Source of the DNA: a virus
Lineage: Duplodnaviria; Caudoviricetes
IMG/VR virus record: IMGVR_UViG_3300042852_000025
Location: 1 to 64,000 of that record
DNA length: 64,000 bases
Reading direction: 5' to 3' (one strand)
Positions within the stretch are counted from its first letter, which is position 1. Each line of letters starts with the position of its first letter. The notes under the pieces are model-generated. The model did no database searches, was not told where the DNA came from, and saw only the letters and a program-made list of their open reading frames with translations. Of the stretch, positions 4,190-64,000 are shown in pieces. The translations under genes and the position numbers were made by a program.

Positions 4190-4231
4190 GAACTCATAAT
4201 TCACTATTCACATATATGAATTGCGTATTCA
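4190..4231. repeat. Heptad repeats upstream of parA (putative centromere/operator)
   Basis: GAACTCA-TAATTCA-CTATTCA in tandem, inverted TGAATTG at 4217-4223, GTATTCA at 4225-4231. Confidence 0.6.
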
Positions 4232-4301
4232 TGGCGCTGACACTAGGCTCATCACCGGTACTGTGTACCAATGGGATTTAAAACTGGTGAGGGCCAATTT
4301 T

Positions 4302-4943
4302 ATGATTGTCGTCGTGGGCTCCAACAAGGGCGGGGTTTCGAAGACCACCACCTGCATAAATATTGCGATCGGCCTGACGCTTAGAGGCAAGGAAGTCATC
4401 GTGCTCGATGCTGACTTCCAGGGCAGCTTCGGGATCTGGAACGGCCACCGCGAAGAGGCACAGCGCGAGCCGGTGATCACCATGGCGAACAAGTACGGCA
4501 ACCTGGTCAACACCGTGGCCAGCCTGGCGAACAAGTACGAACACGTCCTGATCGACGTGGCTGGGCGCAACAGTCAGGAACTGATCACCTCCATGGTCGT
4601 GGCGGACATCGTGATAGCCCCGCACCAGAGCGGGGATCTCGACATCGCCACGCTCAAGCAACTGCGCAAGCAGTACGCCGAGATTTCGCTGGCGAACCCG
4701 AAGCTGCGCGTGCTGATTTACCAGACCATTGGCACCACCCACGCCAAGGGCAGGATCAAGGAACGGGCCGAGTTCCTTAAAGATTTGGCGGATTACCCCG
4801 AGTTCGAAGTGCTGAACAGCATAAGCCGGCACCGCCAAGCCTACAAAGACAGCGTTAAGCGGGGCCTGTCGGTGCTGGAGTACGACGACCCGCTGGCGAA
4901 AGAAGAAATCAACGATCTATTGAATGAGGTGTTTCATGACTAA
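4302..4943 (+). CDS. parA: ParA-family partition ATPase (short, type Ib-like)
   Basis: Deviant Walker A KGGVSKTT, LDADFQGS, VLIDVAG; no N-terminal HTH. Confidence 0.92.
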   Translation: MIVVVGSNKGGVSKTTTCINIAIGLTLRGKEVIVLDADFQGSFGIWNGHREEAQREPVITMANKYGNLVNTVASLANKYEHVLIDVAGRNSQELITSMVVADIVIAPHQSGDLDIATLKQLRKQYAEISLANPKLRVLIYQTIGTTHAKGRIKERAEFLKDLADYPEFEVLNSISRHRQAYKDSVKRGLSVLEYDDPLAKEEINDLLNEVFHD

Positions 4944-5182: not shown

Positions 5183-5635
5183 ATGCGCCCAGGACTGAGA
5201 GAACACATCGAAAGGGACATCACCAAGCTCGGGTTCACCACGATCGCGGTGGGCGACGACCCGGCGGGCTGGTTCGCCTACACCGTGGGCCTCACCGAAC
5301 TGGGGCACCCGGAAATCTTGATCAGCGGGCTGCGTGGGGACTACTGCCACGGGGTGTTCTGGAACGCCTACAACGCGATCAAGAAAGGGCACAGCTTCAA
5401 GGCCGGGCAGGAAGACGACACGCTCGGGCACCTGACCTGTGCCTTCAAGACCCTGAGCCCGGAGGCGGCGGAAAAATTCTGCGCGCAGGCGCTGTACTTC
5501 TACGAGGACAAGCCGAAGACGCCGACCTTCGTGCAGCTGGTGATGCCGGACAAGGCCGGGCGCCTGCCGTGGCAACCGGGCTACGACGCCCAGCTGATGA
5601 AGGTGCAGCGTCACCTGTGGGTGCAGCTGCACTGA
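5183..5635 (+). CDS. DUF4262-family protein
   Basis: FAYTVGLT..GHPEI..SGL and QLVMPD..GRLPW motifs. Confidence 0.85.
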   Translation: MRPGLREHIERDITKLGFTTIAVGDDPAGWFAYTVGLTELGHPEILISGLRGDYCHGVFWNAYNAIKKGHSFKAGQEDDTLGHLTCAFKTLSPEAAEKFCAQALYFYEDKPKTPTFVQLVMPDKAGRLPWQPGYDAQLMKVQRHLWVQLH

Positions 5636-5698
5636 CCTTGCTGGCCATCTGCAACCAAGGCAATGTGTGGGGAGATTTCCAAAAACAAGGAAGCCCCC

Positions 5699-19137: not shown

Positions 19138-19217
19138 GCCTCACGGCTAGCTGTGGTTTGCCGGCGGGCAGTTGCACGCCGGCACTCTCTCTTGTCGTCC
19201 GAGGAATGGGGTGCAAC

Positions 19218-22200
19218 GTGAAACTGAATGGACTGGCTCTGCTCGATGTGCGCGGCTTGCTGCTGCACGCCTACCACCGGGGCACTGACCCCGATGCCAA
19301 ACTCAGCCCCCTGACTGACAAGCCGGTGAACTCTGCCGGCTACGGTTTGCGCGGGTTCCTGGACACCTACATCATTCCCCTGCTGTCTGATTTCTCCCCC
19401 CTCAACATCATCGCGGTGTGGGATGGGGGCAACACCTTCCGCGAAAGCCTGTTCGCGGACTACAAGGCCAAGCGCCACGCCGAGGAAAAAGACCCGGCGA
19501 TCGAAGCGCAGCTGAAAAAGATGTTCGACATGGCCAAGGCGCTGCTGGCCTATGCCGGCGCCTTCAACGTGCGCGTCGAAGGTGTGGAAGCGGACGACGT
19601 GATCGGCGCCTTCTGCCTGCACTTCCCCGAAGTGCTCAAGCTGGTCCACACCGTGGACCGCGACCTGACCCAACTCAACGACGACAACACCACCGTGCTG
19701 GTGAAGGCCCTGCCGGCGGACGATTTCGAAGGCTACCCAACCCGCTACGTGCGGATCTACAAGTCCCTGGTGGGGGACAAGACCGATGAATACGGCGGCG
19801 TGCCGCAGGTCGGGCCGGTGGCGTTCAAGTTCCTGGTCGACACCTACGGCTGGGACGGCATCGAGCAGCTGGAAGCCTGCGTGGCCAACAACGACTACGC
19901 CTTTCTGCTGGAAGCGGTCGAAGCCACCAGCTGCAAGGTGCTGCGCAAAATCTACGAGAGCCGCAGCACCTGGCGCCTGATGTACACCCTGGCGGGGCTG
20001 CACCCGGAGCTGCTGTACGGCGCGCAGGGCCGCACGATCATCCGCCCGGAGTGGTACGTGCGCCTCCCCGACGCGACCAAGGTGCTGGACCTGCTGACCA
20101 TCGCAGGTGACCCGAGCCTGTTCGAACACTTCGCCCCGCACATGCCGACCATGACCCTGGTGACGCCGGAGAACTGGCCGCAGGTGCATGCCGCTTACGT
20201 CGAAGGCTTGCGCGACACCCCGCTGGCCAGCTTCGACTATGAAACCTACGACAGCCTCGGACACGACTGGTCGGCAGCCCTGCCGGACACCTCCCGCGGC
20301 TACGTCGACGTGCTGTCGCAGCGCCTGACCGGGGGGTCGTTCACCTACGGCAGCAACCTGCAACACACCTTCTACCTGCCGGTGCTGCACAAGAACACCG
20401 CCAATCTGGACAAGGCGCGGCTGGTGGATCTGCTGCTCGACATCGAAGAGGCGCGGATTGATTTCGTTGCACACAACGCGAGGTTCGAAGCGTTGGTGAC
20501 CAAGCTGGCGCTGAACTTCCAGCTGGAGGGGCCGATCTGTACGCAGATGCTCGGCACCTACGTCGACGAAAACCTGGAGCAGGGCTTGAAGGCTCACGCC
20601 CGGCACTGGCTGAAGTACGACCAGGTCGAATACAAGGATCTGCTGGCCCAGCACGGCGCCCGGGACATGCGCGACCTCACCGGCGAGCAGGTGACCCACT
20701 ACGCCTGTGATGACGCCTTCGTCGCGGCGCGGCTGGCGGTGCTGTTCTTCCTGATCCTCAAGCTGGAACAGCAGTGGGACTTCGCCTACAACGAGGACCG
20801 CTACACCCTGCACCCGTTCAACGACAGCTTTGAAACCGGGGTGCAGCTCGACTACGCCCGCCTGGACGAACTGGCCGCCGCCGATGCCGCGGTGGTCAAG
20901 AACAACACCGAACGGTTGCACAGCCTGCTGGCCGAGCATTGCAGCCAGATCAGCGACATCGGCGCCGAGGGCTTGAAGAAGGCCGAGGGCGACAACCTGC
21001 TCCGGCTGTACATCCACGACAAGCTGAACCGCTCGCAGGCGCAGGCCAAGGTGGCCGAGACCTACGAACGCTGGCGGCTGGGTTCTGTATACACCCCCTA
21101 CAGCGAGACGTTCACCCCGGCCGAGTTCATCGCCACGGAGAAGGGGTTCACCCGCGTGGCCGAGAAGGTCGGGCTGCCGATCGTGATGGGGAGCGTCAGC
21201 GGCAAGGGTGTCACCGCCTGGCTGATGACCAGCCGGCAGCACCTGAAACAGCACGGCAGCACCGACCCGCGTGCCCGCACGCTGGTCGACCTGGTACAGG
21301 AAGCGGCCGGCGAGATTCGCAAGCGTGAAGGCGCAGCGTTCCTGTGCCTGAAAGCCTTCATTGAAACCGAAGTGCTGCACCTGGACGGCGTGCGCGTGAT
21401 CGAGGGCGACGAACTCAACCTCAACAGTCCCAAGCAAATGCAGGCGCTGCTGTACTGCAAGCTGCAACTGCCGGTGCGCCTGCGCACCTTTCCACAGAAG
21501 GGCAGCCGGCGGGATGAACTCGGCCTGGAAGGCAACCCGTCGACCAACGAGGACGCGATGCTGGCCGCGATGGCCGAGGACTGCCCCGAAGGGGATTGGC
21601 GCCGCGAGGTGTTGCAGCTGCTGATCGGCACCAAAGAGTGCATGACCCGCCAGTCCCTGTACTACGCCAAGTATCCGCACTGGCGGCACCCCAGCACCGG
21701 CGTGGTCCACCCCGGCACCCGCAACTGTGGCACCAAGACCCGTCGCCCGGCCGGCTCCAGCCTGAACATCCTCGCCGTGAGTAAAGGGCCGCTGCGCTCG
21801 ATCTTTCTGCCACGGTTCAAGGGGCATGTGATCGTCGCCCTCGACTTCAGCGGCCAAGAGCTGCGCCTGACCGGCAGCGCGGCCAACGACCCGGTCTTGA
21901 TCGAGGCCTACACCGGCGGCGGTACCTACGTCGACGAAGACGGCATGACCCGGGCGCGCTTCAAGGACATCCACGCCGTGACCGGCTGCACCTTCGCCGC
22001 CAACGTGCTGGAACAGGCCATGGGGCCGGAAATCCTCAAGCGTCTGTCGTTCGATGCCACCGGCAGCATGGACTATGAACAGTTCGTCAGCCTGCTGCAG
22101 GAAGGCGAGCACGTCTATGAACTGGCCGGCGACCTGGCCCTGCCGCTGGGCAAAACCATCGTCAAGATCCGCAAGATGGCCAAGACCGTGAACTTCCTGA

Positions 22201-22784
22201 TCATCTACGGTGGCCAGGCGTTCAGCATGGGCATGAAACTCGGCGTTCCCGAGCGCTTTGCCCAGCGCATCATTGACGGGGTGTTCGCCGGCTACCCGCG
22301 CCTGGCTCCGTGGCAGAAGGAAACCATCGACTTGGCCCGCCGGCAGGGCTACATCACCACGGCCTTCGGCACGCGCAAGCACGTCGACCCCAACATCCTC
22401 AGTCGTGACGGCTCGCTGCGGTCGCGGGCTGAGCGCCAAACCGTCAACCACCAGATCCAGGGCTGCGCCGCCGACATCCTGAAAAAGGTGCTGACCTCGG
22501 CCTATCACACCCACCTGTACGAAGAAACCCACTCCCACCTGATCGCCCCGGTGTACGACGAACTGGTCAACAGCGTGCCGATCGACAACGTCTTTGAATT
22601 CGCCTCGCGCACCCAAGACCTGATGAACATCACGCCGCCGGGGCATCCGATCCCGATGCTGGCCGAGGTGTCCATCGGCCGGAACTGGTACGACTCGGGG
22701 AAAAACGAACTGGGGGATCGACCGTCGCAACGCAAGGTTGAGGCGCTGTTCGACAAGTGGGCCAAAGAGGGGTGGTTAGCATGA
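19218..22784 (+). CDS. polA: Family A DNA polymerase with 5'-3' and 3'-5' exonuclease domains
   Basis: YKAKR, EADDVI, GDKTD; FDYET, HNARFE, YACDDA; DFSGQELR, KTVNFLIIYG, VYDE. Confidence 0.95.
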   Translation: MKLNGLALLDVRGLLLHAYHRGTDPDAKLSPLTDKPVNSAGYGLRGFLDTYIIPLLSDFSPLNIIAVWDGGNTFRESLFADYKAKRHAEEKDPAIEAQLKKMFDMAKALLAYAGAFNVRVEGVEADDVIGAFCLHFPEVLKLVHTVDRDLTQLNDDNTTVLVKALPADDFEGYPTRYVRIYKSLVGDKTDEYGGVPQVGPVAFKFLVDTYGWDGIEQLEACVANNDYAFLLEAVEATSCKVLRKIYESRSTWRLMYTLAGLHPELLYGAQGRTIIRPEWYVRLPDATKVLDLLTIAGDPSLFEHFAPHMPTMTLVTPENWPQVHAAYVEGLRDTPLASFDYETYDSLGHDWSAALPDTSRGYVDVLSQRLTGGSFTYGSNLQHTFYLPVLHKNTANLDKARLVDLLLDIEEARIDFVAHNARFEALVTKLALNFQLEGPICTQMLGTYVDENLEQGLKAHARHWLKYDQVEYKDLLAQHGARDMRDLTGEQVTHYACDDAFVAARLAVLFFLILKLEQQWDFAYNEDRYTLHPFNDSFETGVQLDYARLDELAAADAAVVKNNTERLHSLLAEHCSQISDIGAEGLKKAEGDNLLRLYIHDKLNRSQAQAKVAETYERWRLGSVYTPYSETFTPAEFIATEKGFTRVAEKVGLPIVMGSVSGKGVTAWLMTSRQHLKQHGSTDPRARTLVDLVQEAAGEIRKREGAAFLCLKAFIETEVLHLDGVRVIEGDELNLNSPKQMQALLYCKLQLPVRLRTFPQKGSRRDELGLEGNPSTNEDAMLAAMAEDCPEGDWRREVLQLLIGTKECMTRQSLYYAKYPHWRHPSTGVVHPGTRNCGTKTRRPAGSSLNILAVSKGPLRSIFLPRFKGHVIVALDFSGQELRLTGSAANDPVLIEAYTGGGTYVDEDGMTRARFKDIHAVTGCTFAANVLEQAMGPEILKRLSFDATGSMDYEQFVSLLQEGEHVYELAGDLALPLGKTIVKIRKMAKTVNFLIIYGGQAFSMGMKLGVPERFAQRIIDGVFAGYPRLAPWQKETIDLARRQGYITTAFGTRKHVDPNILSRDGSLRSRAERQTVNHQIQGCAADILKKVLTSAYHTHLYEETHSHLIAPVYDELVNSVPIDNVFEFASRTQDLMNITPPGHPIPMLAEVSIGRNWYDSGKNELGDRPSQRKVEALFDKWAKEGWLA

Positions 22785-61875: not shown

Positions 61876-62166
61876 CTACGCCGCGTGTTGCGCAGTGACC
61901 ACCGCCGTGAGTTGGCCAACCCGTTCCGCCAGGCGGGACAGGCGCTGCTCAAAGATGTGCTCAAACTCGCCTTTGCCTTCCTCGCGCAGGGCGGTCAGGG
62001 CGTCGGCCATGGTCATCGGTACGATCAACGCATGGGTGCTGTCAGGCAGGCTGGCCAGGTGGGCCTGGGCTTCGTCGCGGTGGGTGTAAACCCCCGCCAC
62101 CACAACGGATTGACGTACTTCGTCCAGCCGGTAAAGCACCAGCGCTTCAAGGGTGATTTCGCTCAT
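61876..62166 (-). CDS. Hypothetical protein
   Basis: First ORF of the leftward arm. Confidence 0.6.
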   Translation of the reverse strand: MSEITLEALVLYRLDEVRQSVVVAGVYTHRDEAQAHLASLPDSTHALIVPMTMADALTALREEGKGEFEHIFEQRLSRLAERVGQLTAVVTAQHAA

Positions 62167-62501
62167 GGGGAGACCTATGCGGATAATCAGCTCGGCCGTC
62201 TTCGGTTAGGTGAAACACTCGCGGCCTTGGGTTAAAGACTAGGCGAGGATCGCGAAAAAATTTTACGTTGCTTCGTTTTTGAGGCAACAGAGGCCTCAAA
62301 AGCGGGTGTTTTGCCCCCCTTTGAAACTTTTTTCACTATTTTTTCGATTGTGCTGGGAACCTTTCCTGACAAGGCTTTGGCGCCATGGATTGTCCGACAA
62401 ACGGTGTTTTTCGATGGCACTTTTGTGAATGTCAAGGGGGGTAAAGACGGATGCTTGGTTGTCTTTTTACCTAAATGCTCCGTATCCTATTGACCGTAAA
62501 C

Positions 62502-62535
62502 GAAAAAGCCCCCGCTGTTTAGGCGAGGGCTTTTC
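62502..62535. terminator. Possibly bidirectional terminator-like hairpin
   Basis: GAAAAAGCCC..GC loop GC..GGGCTTTTC. Confidence 0.6.
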
Positions 62536-62538
62536 GGA

Positions 62539-63148
62539 CTGGTGGGTATTGCAAGTACCGCCAGCCAAGGTCTCGGGGAATTCTGCTTAAACGGGCGGGA
62601 TACGAGACCGGGTCTAAAAAGTATACGCGAAAATTGATCGCGTGTTCAACCATGCCCGTCTCACCCCCGTAACCCTTCCATTGCGCGTCTGGATCAAGAT
62701 GGGGCGTTCGTTCGCCTATTGGGCCGCAGTGCGTAAAACCACCCACAAGGGGATCTTCTCAGGGTGGTCGGTATAGCCGGGAGGTACGAACCTGGAAACA
62801 GGTCGGGAAGGCAATGGCAGGGCGGCGTATTACCCAGACACAGGCGCCGTCGACTGTCCCAAAACCTACCCCCGCCGTGCGCCGAGAAGGGCCGAGGGCG
62901 CTTGTAACGCATAACCTCGAAAGCGCGGAACGCCAGCTGGGAGTGGGAGCCGGGAAACCGGGATTTCCCCATTGCGTGGAGTTGTGTGAAAGGCCTTTTT
63001 TCAGGGGCTGGACGCAGGGGCTCGCACGCCAGTGGGAGCAAGAAGGGGGCCAGCTTTCGGCGGCCCTTGCAAGCGCTCTAACCCCCACCTCGGGGAACGA
63101 ACAGGGGTCTGAACGATTTAATAATATTACGGTTAGCATCTGTTCAGA
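62539..63148 (+). ncRNA. Candidate large structured ncRNA of unknown class
   Basis: More than 12 helices found by hand, two GAAA tetraloops, long-range and crossing pairings, G-U pairs on the + strand. Confidence 0.6.
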
Positions 63149-63218
63149 TTTGTACGAGAAATGTAACGTGCTGTGCCCAGTACCAGGACAAATCCCAAAA
63201 ACAACAAGGAGAAGGACA

Positions 63219-63413
63219 ATGTTGATTCTGACCCGCCGCATTCACGAAACCATCATCGTTGGCGACGACATCCGCATCACAGTGCTTGGTGTCAGCGGCC
63301 TGCAGGTGCGCATCGGCATTGATGCGCCCAAGGGCATCGAGGTCCATCGCGAGGAAATCTACAACCGCATTCAGGCCGAAAAAGCTGAACTCGCGAATGT
63401 GGACCTAGACTGA
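63219..63413 (+). CDS. csrA: CsrA/RsmA translational regulator
   Basis: [43 protein letters not shown]. Confidence 0.96.
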
Positions 63414-63443
63414 ACGGATAGCTTCATCACAGGGAGTCGCCGC

Positions 63444-64000
63444 TTGAACACGCCTACCCAACACAGCACCCCGAAAGGGCTGTACCAGTACGTCGGCAAA
63501 GACGACACCTACGAGTTGCTGGGTGACTGCATTGGCGCCGGTACCGATCGGGGCCACGACACCAAAATCTACCGCAACATCCACACCGGACAGTTGCACA
63601 GCCGGTTTGCCGATGACTTCGAAAACCGTTTGGTTCGTATCGGTGAGCGGGTTGAGTTTTCCTACAGTGAGGCTCCCCAACCCTACAACTCCGGTCATCA
63701 GATCGAAGGGGTGGACCGCTGCCACACCGTGCAGGAAATGATTCACTCCCTGCTCGATGCACACCCGGCGGTGCTGAAATCGGGAGCCGCCCCGTTGATC
63801 GAGCAAGCCCGCACGGCCATCTTTCAGGCCCATCAGCTGATCGGTCTGATGGACGACACCGTCGTTTCCAGCGGTGAAGACGACACCGATCTGCTGCGCG
63901 AAGCGCTTGAGCTTTTCGAGTACGTCACCTGGCACGATGGCCGCTACCGTCAAGAGTCCAGTTTGAAGTTTCAGACCCCGGCGCAGAAGTTGGTGAGCCG
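63444..64000 (+). CDS. Hypothetical protein (partial, runs off the window)
   Basis: AGGGAG RBS then TTG; open frame MNTPTQHSTPKGLYQYVGKDDTYELLG... to the window end. Confidence 0.65.
   Translation, partial: MNTPTQHSTPKGLYQYVGKDDTYELLGDCIGAGTDRGHDTKIYRNIHTGQLHSRFADDFENRLVRIGERVEFSYSEAPQPYNSGHQIEGVDRCHTVQEMIHSLLDAHPAVLKSGAAPLIEQARTAIFQAHQLIGLMDDTVVSSGEDDTDLLREALELFEYVTWHDGRYRQESSLKFQTPAQKLVS

Follow-up and report, generated by a model that had tools for sequence, protein, structure and literature searches.

A noncoding element of about 554 nt at positions 62495–63048 of IMG/VR virus record IMGVR_UViG_3300042852_000025, from a tailed phage, is probably a second origin of replication which, like that of ColE1, would be RNA-primed, antisense-controlled and independent of an initiator protein. 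The window analysed is bases 1–64,000 of this 72,556-bp record. The unit consists of three conserved modules: a predicted antisense gene, a core belonging to the Rfam motif PAGEV, and a 3′ module. Its structure and covariation, its strand, its family membership and its presence on small plasmids that lack a recognisable replication protein (Rep) were computed here. The unit appears to be the Pseudomonas/phage branch of a lineage that includes the Vibrio MRB (marine RNA-based)/CLV plasmids, in which PAGEV would form the body of the long RNA. The PAGEV RNA itself is already catalogued; here it lies in a probable phage-plasmid together with a predicted antisense gene. A preliminary description of 62539–63148 had viewed the region as a novel RNA, pseudoknotted and about 600 nt long, next to a phage csrA/rsmA gene.

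A scan of the whole window against Rfam at the gathering scores (61.1 bits for PAGEV, 47 bits for RNAI, RF00106) returned a single match, PAGEV (RF03037), at 62683–62935 on the + strand (E = 9e-18; model positions 1–185, not truncated). A permissive scan of 62100–63500 added sub-threshold matches only, the best of which was RNAI on the minus strand; neither GOLLD nor ROOL, the large phage RNAs to which the region had been likened, was among the matches at E ≤ 1 in this interval. With its core above the cut-off for PAGEV, the element is not an undescribed RNA, and it was the preliminary description itself that had named a match to a known Rfam family as the end of that claim. Weinberg et al. 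2017 (PMC5737381), the only paper on this RNA in the literature searched, named PAGEV for its plasmid association in gamma-proteobacteria, especially Vibrionales, and located one such RNA in a predicted plasmid replication origin, citing Stavrinides & Guttman 2004. The same association is found here, with homologues on small Pseudomonas plasmids and one Vibrio plasmid, and the present copy on a phage which encodes ParA and Rep3. The match above the cut-off, taken with the published placement in an origin, argues for an RNA-primed origin. Likeness to the family extends to the helices of the Rfam model, which are retained with compensatory changes. The present element differs in that the model spans 253 of the approximately 554 conserved nt, a conserved stretch of about 57 nt that the model lacks is inserted in the Pseudomonas and phage copies, those from phages contain a further 15-nt insertion, and the host replicon is a tailed phage instead of a plasmid.

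Comparison by blastn with the fetched loci revealed four phage contigs that are 92–94% identical over 62409–63250, a fifth (L014) that is 85.5% identical over 62402–63052, and Pseudomonas plasmid-type sequences with approximately 70–74% identity over 62498–63039. In a 25-nt profile computed against the more distant sequences, conservation increases near 62490 and drops from 0.70 to 0.21 at 63050; the unit was therefore delimited as approximately 62495–63048, and the last 100 nt of the interval described earlier, with its 3′ boundary at 63148, lie outside it. The spacer that follows (63049–63218) diverges by 11.7–17.5% in the 91–94% relatives and by 54% in L014. Approximately 550 bp are common to the five related phage contigs and to small Pseudomonas plasmids without a recognisable replication protein. 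The blastn matches among plasmids fall on small Pseudomonas plasmids of 4.4–10.6 kb, in which the matching DNA is unannotated, while 62200–63450 matched nothing in the phage collection. A pattern scan of IMG/VR yielded nine viral contigs, five with PAGEV above the cut-off, and a second viral-contig pattern gave three matches, one of them PAGEV. The corresponding scan of genome contigs gave 106 matches, mostly due to chance, and 12 Pseudomonas-type loci were retained after blastn; PAGEV was present in one of 151 genomes in an order-wide scan and in one of seven in a family-wide scan. A coding origin for the element was considered and rejected: a 210-aa open reading frame (ORF) spans it in some plasmids, but this has no counterpart in the phage or in plasmid pPMA4326D, and the alignment across the element contains indels of lengths not divisible by three.

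Alignment of 16 sequences with RNAalifold gave 118 consensus pairs, 33 of which show compensatory changes. In the 15 distinct rows 97.8% of cells pair, and the 33 pairs changed on both sides compare with 16.3 ± 2.0 in shuffles (0/500) and with 4–7 when partners are slid by 1–3 columns, a count favourable to the structure in that the consensus was derived from the same alignment. Helices 8, 14 and 16 of PAGEV have six, four and three pairs, respectively, changed on both sides, with 100% of cells paired. The core and the 3′ part contain 208 G-U cells versus 6 A-C cells and therefore fold on the + strand; the earlier proposal of a structured + strand RNA was correct in this respect. Folding energies are less striking. 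For 62539–63148 the + strand has z = -1.82 (0/20 shuffles as good) and the minus strand z = -0.61 (3/20); the + strand of the revised unit, 62495–63048, has z = -1.94 (3/100), the 5′ module, 62495–62615, z = -3.53 (0/200), and 63049–63218, which includes approximately the last 100 nt of the interval first described, z = -0.03 (93/200). Taken as a whole, the stretch folds only modestly better than expected by chance, and the 5′ and central parts account for the difference.

Opposite the 5′ end of the unit, on the minus strand, lies the predicted antisense gene with its own promoter and terminator (Table 1), which the preliminary description had missed and which has the architecture of ColE1 RNA I. 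The homologue of its promoter-like site is the sole such site at ≥9/12 consensus positions in plasmid L001, in pPMA4326D (L003) and in viral contig L135. All four Pseudomonas-type lineages scanned possess a site at the matching place, followed in each case by three stem-loops, the last a terminator, and this recurrence is a further argument for an RNA-primed origin. The homologous antisense RNAs fold with z values of -4.81 (L001), -4.61 (L003) and -4.31 (L135). The terminator hairpin varies in sequence among phage, plasmids and pPMA4326D with its pairing retained, and its plasmid equivalent is flagged as terminator-like on the antisense strand. In the next stem-loop (62539–62564) both loop and stem differ even among the 91–94% relatives; in the third (62569–62609) the outer stem shows a double compensatory change in L003. 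The hairpin at 62624–62644 sits within the spacer of the antisense promoter and would therefore be present only in the + strand RNA; by alignment, plasmids have an equivalent with other sequences and in a shifted register. Compared to the three closest phages, the antisense-overlap region differs by 11.5–13.1%, whereas the PAGEV core shows 0–1 differences in 253 nt (0–0.4%). Fast-evolving loops beside a nearly invariant core would be expected of a replicon whose loops determine specificity while its core carries out the function, and this too points to an RNA-primed origin.

Both hexamer blocks of the candidate promoter for the long + strand RNA align with similar blocks in the plasmids, and transcription would start near 62494. 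At the other end, conservation stops after the hairpin at 63020–63039. A G-run plus hairpin is found approximately 65–85 nt past PAGEV in the plasmids, pPMA4326D, two Vibrio copies, L135 and a chromosomal locus (G019); the hairpin sequences differ. The same 9-mer, conserved in phages and plasmids, occurs at 62943–62951 and 63032–63040, and each copy can pair with the pyrimidine-rich 62968–73 or 63021–27, making alternative folds of the 3′ module possible. Just past the unit, at 63047–63066, the phage lineage retains a 5-bp GC hairpin, in which L014 shows a compensatory change; on the minus strand this hairpin resembles a terminator, and it may protect the origin from transcripts running leftward.

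Table 1. Coordinates of the conserved unit, its parts and its flanks in the window
Feature	Position	Strand	Evidence or remark
Conserved non-coding unit, ~554 nt; proposed pre-primer RNA (RNA II analogue)	62495–63048	+	blastn, conservation profile, covariation
Candidate promoter of the long + strand RNA: -35-like 62458–63, 18-nt spacer, -10-like 62482–87	62458–62487	+	Alignment
Predicted antisense RNA, ~115 nt (RNA I analogue): two stem-loops plus terminator hairpin with U-run	62500–62613	-	Fold z = -3.21
Terminator hairpin between A-run and T-run; predicted antisense end and first hairpin of + strand RNA	62502–62536		Fold
Stem-loop with variable loop; candidate kissing loop/specificity determinant	62539–62564		Helix 2: four pairs changed on both sides
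Stem-loop: conserved 7-bp outer stem, G-U-rich inner helix	62569–62609		7/7 pairs in 12/13 rows
Promoter-like site of antisense RNA: TTGAAC, 18 nt, TATACT	62620–62649	-	Flagged by promoter scan
Hairpin in spacer of antisense promoter	62624–62644	+	7/7 pairs in phages, compensated in L014
PAGEV RNA (Rfam RF03037), full-length match	62683–62935	+	80.3 bits versus cut-off 61.1
15-nt insertion in first PAGEV loop	62702–62716	+	Phage lineage only; not in any plasmid row
3′ module: hairpin 62993–63008, G-run 63014–63020, hairpin 63020–63039	62936–63048	+	Helices 17 and 19 of the consensus; 62993–63008 covaries
Non-conserved spacer and csrA leader	63049–63218	+	Outside unit; divergence, fold z = -0.03
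csrA/rsmA, 64 aa; neighbour, not component	63219–63413	+	Pfam CsrA 85.5 bits

What the phage and the plasmids have in common is limited to this unit. A blastp comparison of the phage ORFs with those of four PAGEV plasmids gave no phage–plasmid match; the 0.55-kb unit is therefore all that they share, and its being the sole feature common to the phage and to plasmids without a recognisable Rep again argues for an RNA-primed origin. No Rep is annotated in the five records of PAGEV plasmids of 4.4–9.2 kb, and none of ten plasmid proteins (0/10) matches a replication-initiator family in Pfam at E ≤ 0.05. Romaniuk et al. 2019 cloned the REP modules of two PAGEV plasmids, pA4J1 and pA22BJ2, which replicated in Pseudomonas only; the Antarctic Pseudomonas replicons are termed iteron-containing there and replicases are mentioned, a description which may bear on the claim that pA4J1 and pA22BJ2 lack a Rep. 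Plasmid pAM10.6 was considered as a Rep-less Pseudomonas replicon and dropped, since two papers give RepA for it.

The closest experimentally studied relatives appear to be plasmids of Vibrio. Le Roux et al. 2011 (PMC3035462) report that approximately 500 bp without ORFs suffices for autonomous replication in MRB plasmids, and that both RNA I and RNA II are detected. RNA I, of 68 nt with two stem-loops, is described as negative regulator and incompatibility determinant, and RNA II, of at least 465 nt, as ending near the edge of the conserved block; a note added in proof equates the MRB family with the ColE1-like Vibrionaceae (CLV) plasmids of Pan et al. 2010. Ares-Arroyo et al. 2021 (PMC8683028), whose survey gives only one ColE1-like plasmid in Pseudomonas, place a ColE1-like origin in the V. 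campbellii plasmid NZ_CP026317.1, with an rpn-like gene directly downstream. In this record we find PAGEV (77.6 bits) at 138775–139025, adjoining the Rpn gene at 137736–138668, and a second PAGEV (113.4 bits) at 123572–123787. In each copy an antisense promoter-like site occupies the corresponding position, and the 3′ G-run and hairpin motif is present too. Their predicted antisense RNAs differ in the 5′ loop and form two stem-loops over the 73–77 nt folded, which fits the published 68-nt RNA I of MRB plasmids. The same layout in a Vibrio plasmid with a reported ColE1-like origin, and replication of that family from ~500 bp free of ORFs, favour the RNA-primed reading of the phage unit. The features held in common with MRB/CLV origins are a length of about 500 bp without ORFs, a small antisense RNA, predicted here, which overlaps the 5′ part of the long RNA and is framed by a promoter and terminator of its own, the PAGEV core and 3′ G-run/hairpin at the Vibrio loci, and loop differences between copies. 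The differences lie in RNA I, which in Vibrio has 68 nt and two stem-loops versus a predicted ~115 nt and three stem-loops here, and in the host range, MRB being described as limited to Vibrionaceae and the present unit being found in a phage and in Pseudomonas. The two PAGEV/MRB-type modules of the 195-kb NZ_CP026317.1 both lie among insertion sequence (IS) elements.

The record is that of a tailed phage, with matches to PHROGs families for terminase, portal, head protease, major head protein and tape measure. A ParA-like partition ATPase at 4221–4943 (+) (Pfam AAA_31/CbiA/ParA; PHROG 164) supports a plasmid-like prophage state, and the phage can probably live as a plasmid. Beyond the window, at 68275–68985 of the record, is a Rep3-type initiator gene (Rep3_N+Rep3_C), beside which are five or six 16-bp repeats with 22-bp spacing (iterons; record 67905–68180); this protein-based iteron/Rep3 origin is approximately 5 kb from the PAGEV unit. 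The unit itself sits where leftward late genes give way to rightward genes. GC skew across the 72.5-kb record tracks gene direction and does not permit placement of an origin, and a search of the window for DnaA boxes is uninformative, with five one-mismatch matches (one at 62178–86) versus 4.66 expected. The phage also encodes a family-A DNA polymerase of 1208 aa at 19158–22784 (+) with an N-terminal 5′-3′ exonuclease domain. The best-scoring polymerase stretch of this protein comprises residues 998–1179, and several hundred residues between the listed best stretches are uncovered.

With ColE1/pMB1 the unit shares an antisense RNA, predicted here, of three stem-loops that closes with the terminator and faces the 5′ end of an approximately 550-nt RNA; no recognisable initiator protein is seen among the small plasmids. 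Priming in ColE1 depends on Pol I and RNase H. Among phages, Wetzel et al. 2020 (PMC7157519) describe RNA-based origins in extrachromosomal mycobacteriophage prophages, that is, in plasmid-living phages with RNA-based instead of RepA-based initiation; their hosts and sequences are unrelated to the present ones, and the likeness is one of description only. This precedent and the exonuclease-bearing polymerase of the phage are further arguments for an RNA-primed origin. We infer the synthesis of either RNA, the priming step, the polymerase used and the role of the unit in the phage life cycle to be as follows. A + strand transcript of approximately 550 nt would run from near 62494 through the PAGEV fold and be ended or processed at the G-run/hairpin motif near 63040, where it would remain hybridised to the template and then be cut to generate a 3′ end. 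This end would be extended by a family-A polymerase, either host Pol I or the 1208-aa PolA of the phage. The minus-strand RNA of about 115 nt (62613 to ~62500), complementary to the first 120 nt of the long RNA, would bind the latter via hairpin loops and cause the pre-primer to misfold, thereby setting copy number and incompatibility. The unit would thus act as a second origin beside the iteron/Rep3 replicon with its ParA.

Several points weigh against this interpretation. Both RNAs are predictions from sequence. The public sequencing runs that match (five runs from two studies, with at most 0.21 of the sampled words present) are contigs only and possibly DNA; the four that were aligned, all contigs and three of them possibly DNA, cover parts of 62323–63045 and then csrA, in part from plasmid-type relatives, and they are therefore silent on transcription, strand and ends. 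The candidate + strand promoter is weak, with eight of 12 consensus positions, and went unflagged under the scan threshold of nine. The RNAI match at 62500–62616 (-) is sub-threshold (28.4 bits versus a cut-off of 47), and no sequence homology to the body of the ColE1/pMB1 RNA was detected. An 82-aa protein is common to all four plasmids compared, and a 139-aa protein with a weak helix-turn-helix (HTH) to three of them; the small plasmid proteins could be unrecognised initiators. The phage already has a complete iteron/Rep3 replicon and therefore does not require an origin in the PAGEV unit. For the MRB plasmids, Le Roux et al. 2011 (PMC3035462) leave the mechanism of RNA II, including priming, unproven, and the equation of PAGEV with the MRB origin, as proposed here, derives from one record, through rpn adjacency and shared architecture. 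Finally, PAGEV at G019 follows an ORF so closely that this 5′ module would not fit in between, so not every PAGEV comes with the antisense module.

These same proteins and the G019 locus, which lacks the 5′ module, could also be read as signs that PAGEV and its antisense RNA have a non-priming function, as a plasmid or phage RNA for stability, exclusion or defence, while the small plasmids replicate by an unrecognised protein; moreover, what Weinberg et al. 2017 (PMC5737381) give for PAGEV function comes from sequence association only. We nevertheless consider this unlikely, since by blastp the phage has none of the proteins shared by the plasmids, conservation stops at a defined motif as it does at an origin, and in Vibrio the same layout coincides with a reported ColE1-like origin (PMC8683028) in a family that replicates from ~500 bp without ORFs (PMC3035462). 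An origin acting as DNA, through single-stranded hairpins or protein sites and with the RNA folds incidental, appears quite improbable. Weinberg et al. 2017 (PMC5737381) do raise a single-stranded DNA role for another plasmid motif, GEBRO, and the hairpins and repeated 9-mer could be protein or primosome sites, but the ratio of G-U to A-C cells fits one-strand RNA pairing, GNRA-type loops are present, a promoter–terminator pair frames a discrete predicted antisense RNA in four lineages, and RNA I and RNA II are reported as detected in the Vibrio family (PMC3035462).

The position of csrA invites a different explanation, namely a leader or regulatory RNA, gated by the antisense RNA, for csrA and the rightward phage genes. 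The unit lies upstream of this gene, on the same strand, in all five related phage contigs (5/5), at the switch from leftward late to rightward genes. Against this, conservation ends 170 nt before csrA and the intervening spacer is fast-evolving and unstructured; csrA matched no ORF of the four plasmids compared by blastp, and the five fully listed plasmid records contain no annotated csrA. A role as RsmA sponge was also rejected: GGA occurs 16 times versus 12.6 ± 2.6 expected, a count reached by 55/500 shuffles, and ANGGA is absent. The leader explanation is thus highly improbable, and the link to RsmA, with which the RNA had been supposed to act or which it might control, is one of synteny within a single phage lineage. 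We give least credence to the original view of a new ~600-nt pseudoknotted ribozyme, scaffold or ribonucleoprotein RNA working with the adjacent RsmA. There is indeed a fold on the + strand, and close phages hardly differ in the PAGEV core, but the Rfam match ends the novelty, seven of 19 proposed helices are not conserved, shuffles fold as well as the last 100 nt, and outside the phage lineage nothing ties the RNA to RsmA. A large hairpin-dense gap beside a phage csrA need not mean a new ribozyme-like RNA.

The complementary segments of the preliminary description were split into 19 helices and tested on 12 other sequences (four phage contigs and eight plasmid-type), giving 13 rows with the window. 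All 19 do pair in the window, including the long-range helix with 11 of 12 pairs. Phages and plasmids share ten, most of them showing compensatory or G-U changes, two are restricted to the phage lineage, and seven are not kept. Those retained in both groups include the local helices 62539–43/62560–64 and 62545–49/62555–59, the 62569–75/62603–09 stem with its G-U-rich inner helix, the 62624–44 hairpin in its shifted plasmid register, the 62738–44/62762–68 helix, which has 7/7 pairs in all 13 rows with four different sequences, and the GNRA hairpin at 62790–803, the length of which varies. To the ten also belong AGTGGG/CCCATT, its inner CCGG hairpin, which is kept in part, and the TTGGG/CCCAA half of the TTGGG..GCAGT pairing; the GCAGT/ACTGT half has 2–3/5 pairs and is not kept. 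The two helices kept in the phage lineage only are 63047–51/63062–66 and 62898–903/62921–26, the latter in conflict with covarying Rfam helices. The elements from which the large architecture was built have fared worse. The long-range helix 62673–84/62811–22 has 6/12 pairs in every plasmid row; the helices thought to close 62644–63114 have 2–4/5 and 3–4/5 pairs in the 91–94% relatives; the 5′ strand of the pseudoknot 62706–13/63095–102 lies in the 15-nt phage-only insertion, and 2/8 pairs remain in L014; 63032–36/63084–88 has 2/5 pairs in L014; and the supposed switch stem 63108–14/63142–48 has 3–5/7 pairs in the 91–94% relatives. With the exception of one 5-bp pairing, the long-range and pseudoknot elements of the ~600-nt architecture are not conserved.

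A few observations on the homologues deserve mention. Viral contig L135 (IMG/VR, 64,559 bp) carries at 1400–2010 the same three-module unit, of the plasmid-like sequence type, with PAGEV at 89.5 bits. The 9.2-kb P. fragi plasmid pLKYC.ZH (L002) contains two complete PAGEV units, at 652–889 and 5405–5642, that point the same way, as would be seen in a dimer or in a cointegrate formed by two small related plasmids. Assembly coverage of the unit-bearing contigs L050, L086 and L081 (2.2, 0.65 and 7.5 kb) is 4565, 438 and 215, respectively, which, taken by itself, may hint at high copy number. Approximately 200 nt downstream of the chromosomal PAGEV at G019 are two copies of a 21-bp repeat (L126:1240–1310); a perfect DnaA-box consensus lies within the first, from which the second departs at two bases. 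A blastn search of the G019 element against plasmids found nothing useful.

More tentatively, and with rather less confidence than in the RNA-primed origin as such, PAGEV may be the pre-primer body of one broad and ancient family of protein-free, RNA-primed replicons, to which the Vibrio MRB plasmids and the small Pseudomonas plasmids would belong. It would have been captured as a second origin by at least one lineage of tailed Pseudomonas phage-plasmids, possibly for a high-copy or lytic phase and with the phage polymerase extending the primer, and the rapid evolution of its antisense loops would allow related phages and plasmids to coexist. The RNA-primed interpretation assigns the orphan motif PAGEV a concrete and testable role, as pre-primer in an RNA-based origin, and connects it with a replicon type of Vibrio that has been studied at the bench. 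It would extend ColE1-style replication to Pseudomonas plasmids and to a tailed phage that possesses a protein-based replicon. A protein-free origin of 0.6 kb with a tunable antisense regulator would also be a handy part for Pseudomonas vectors.

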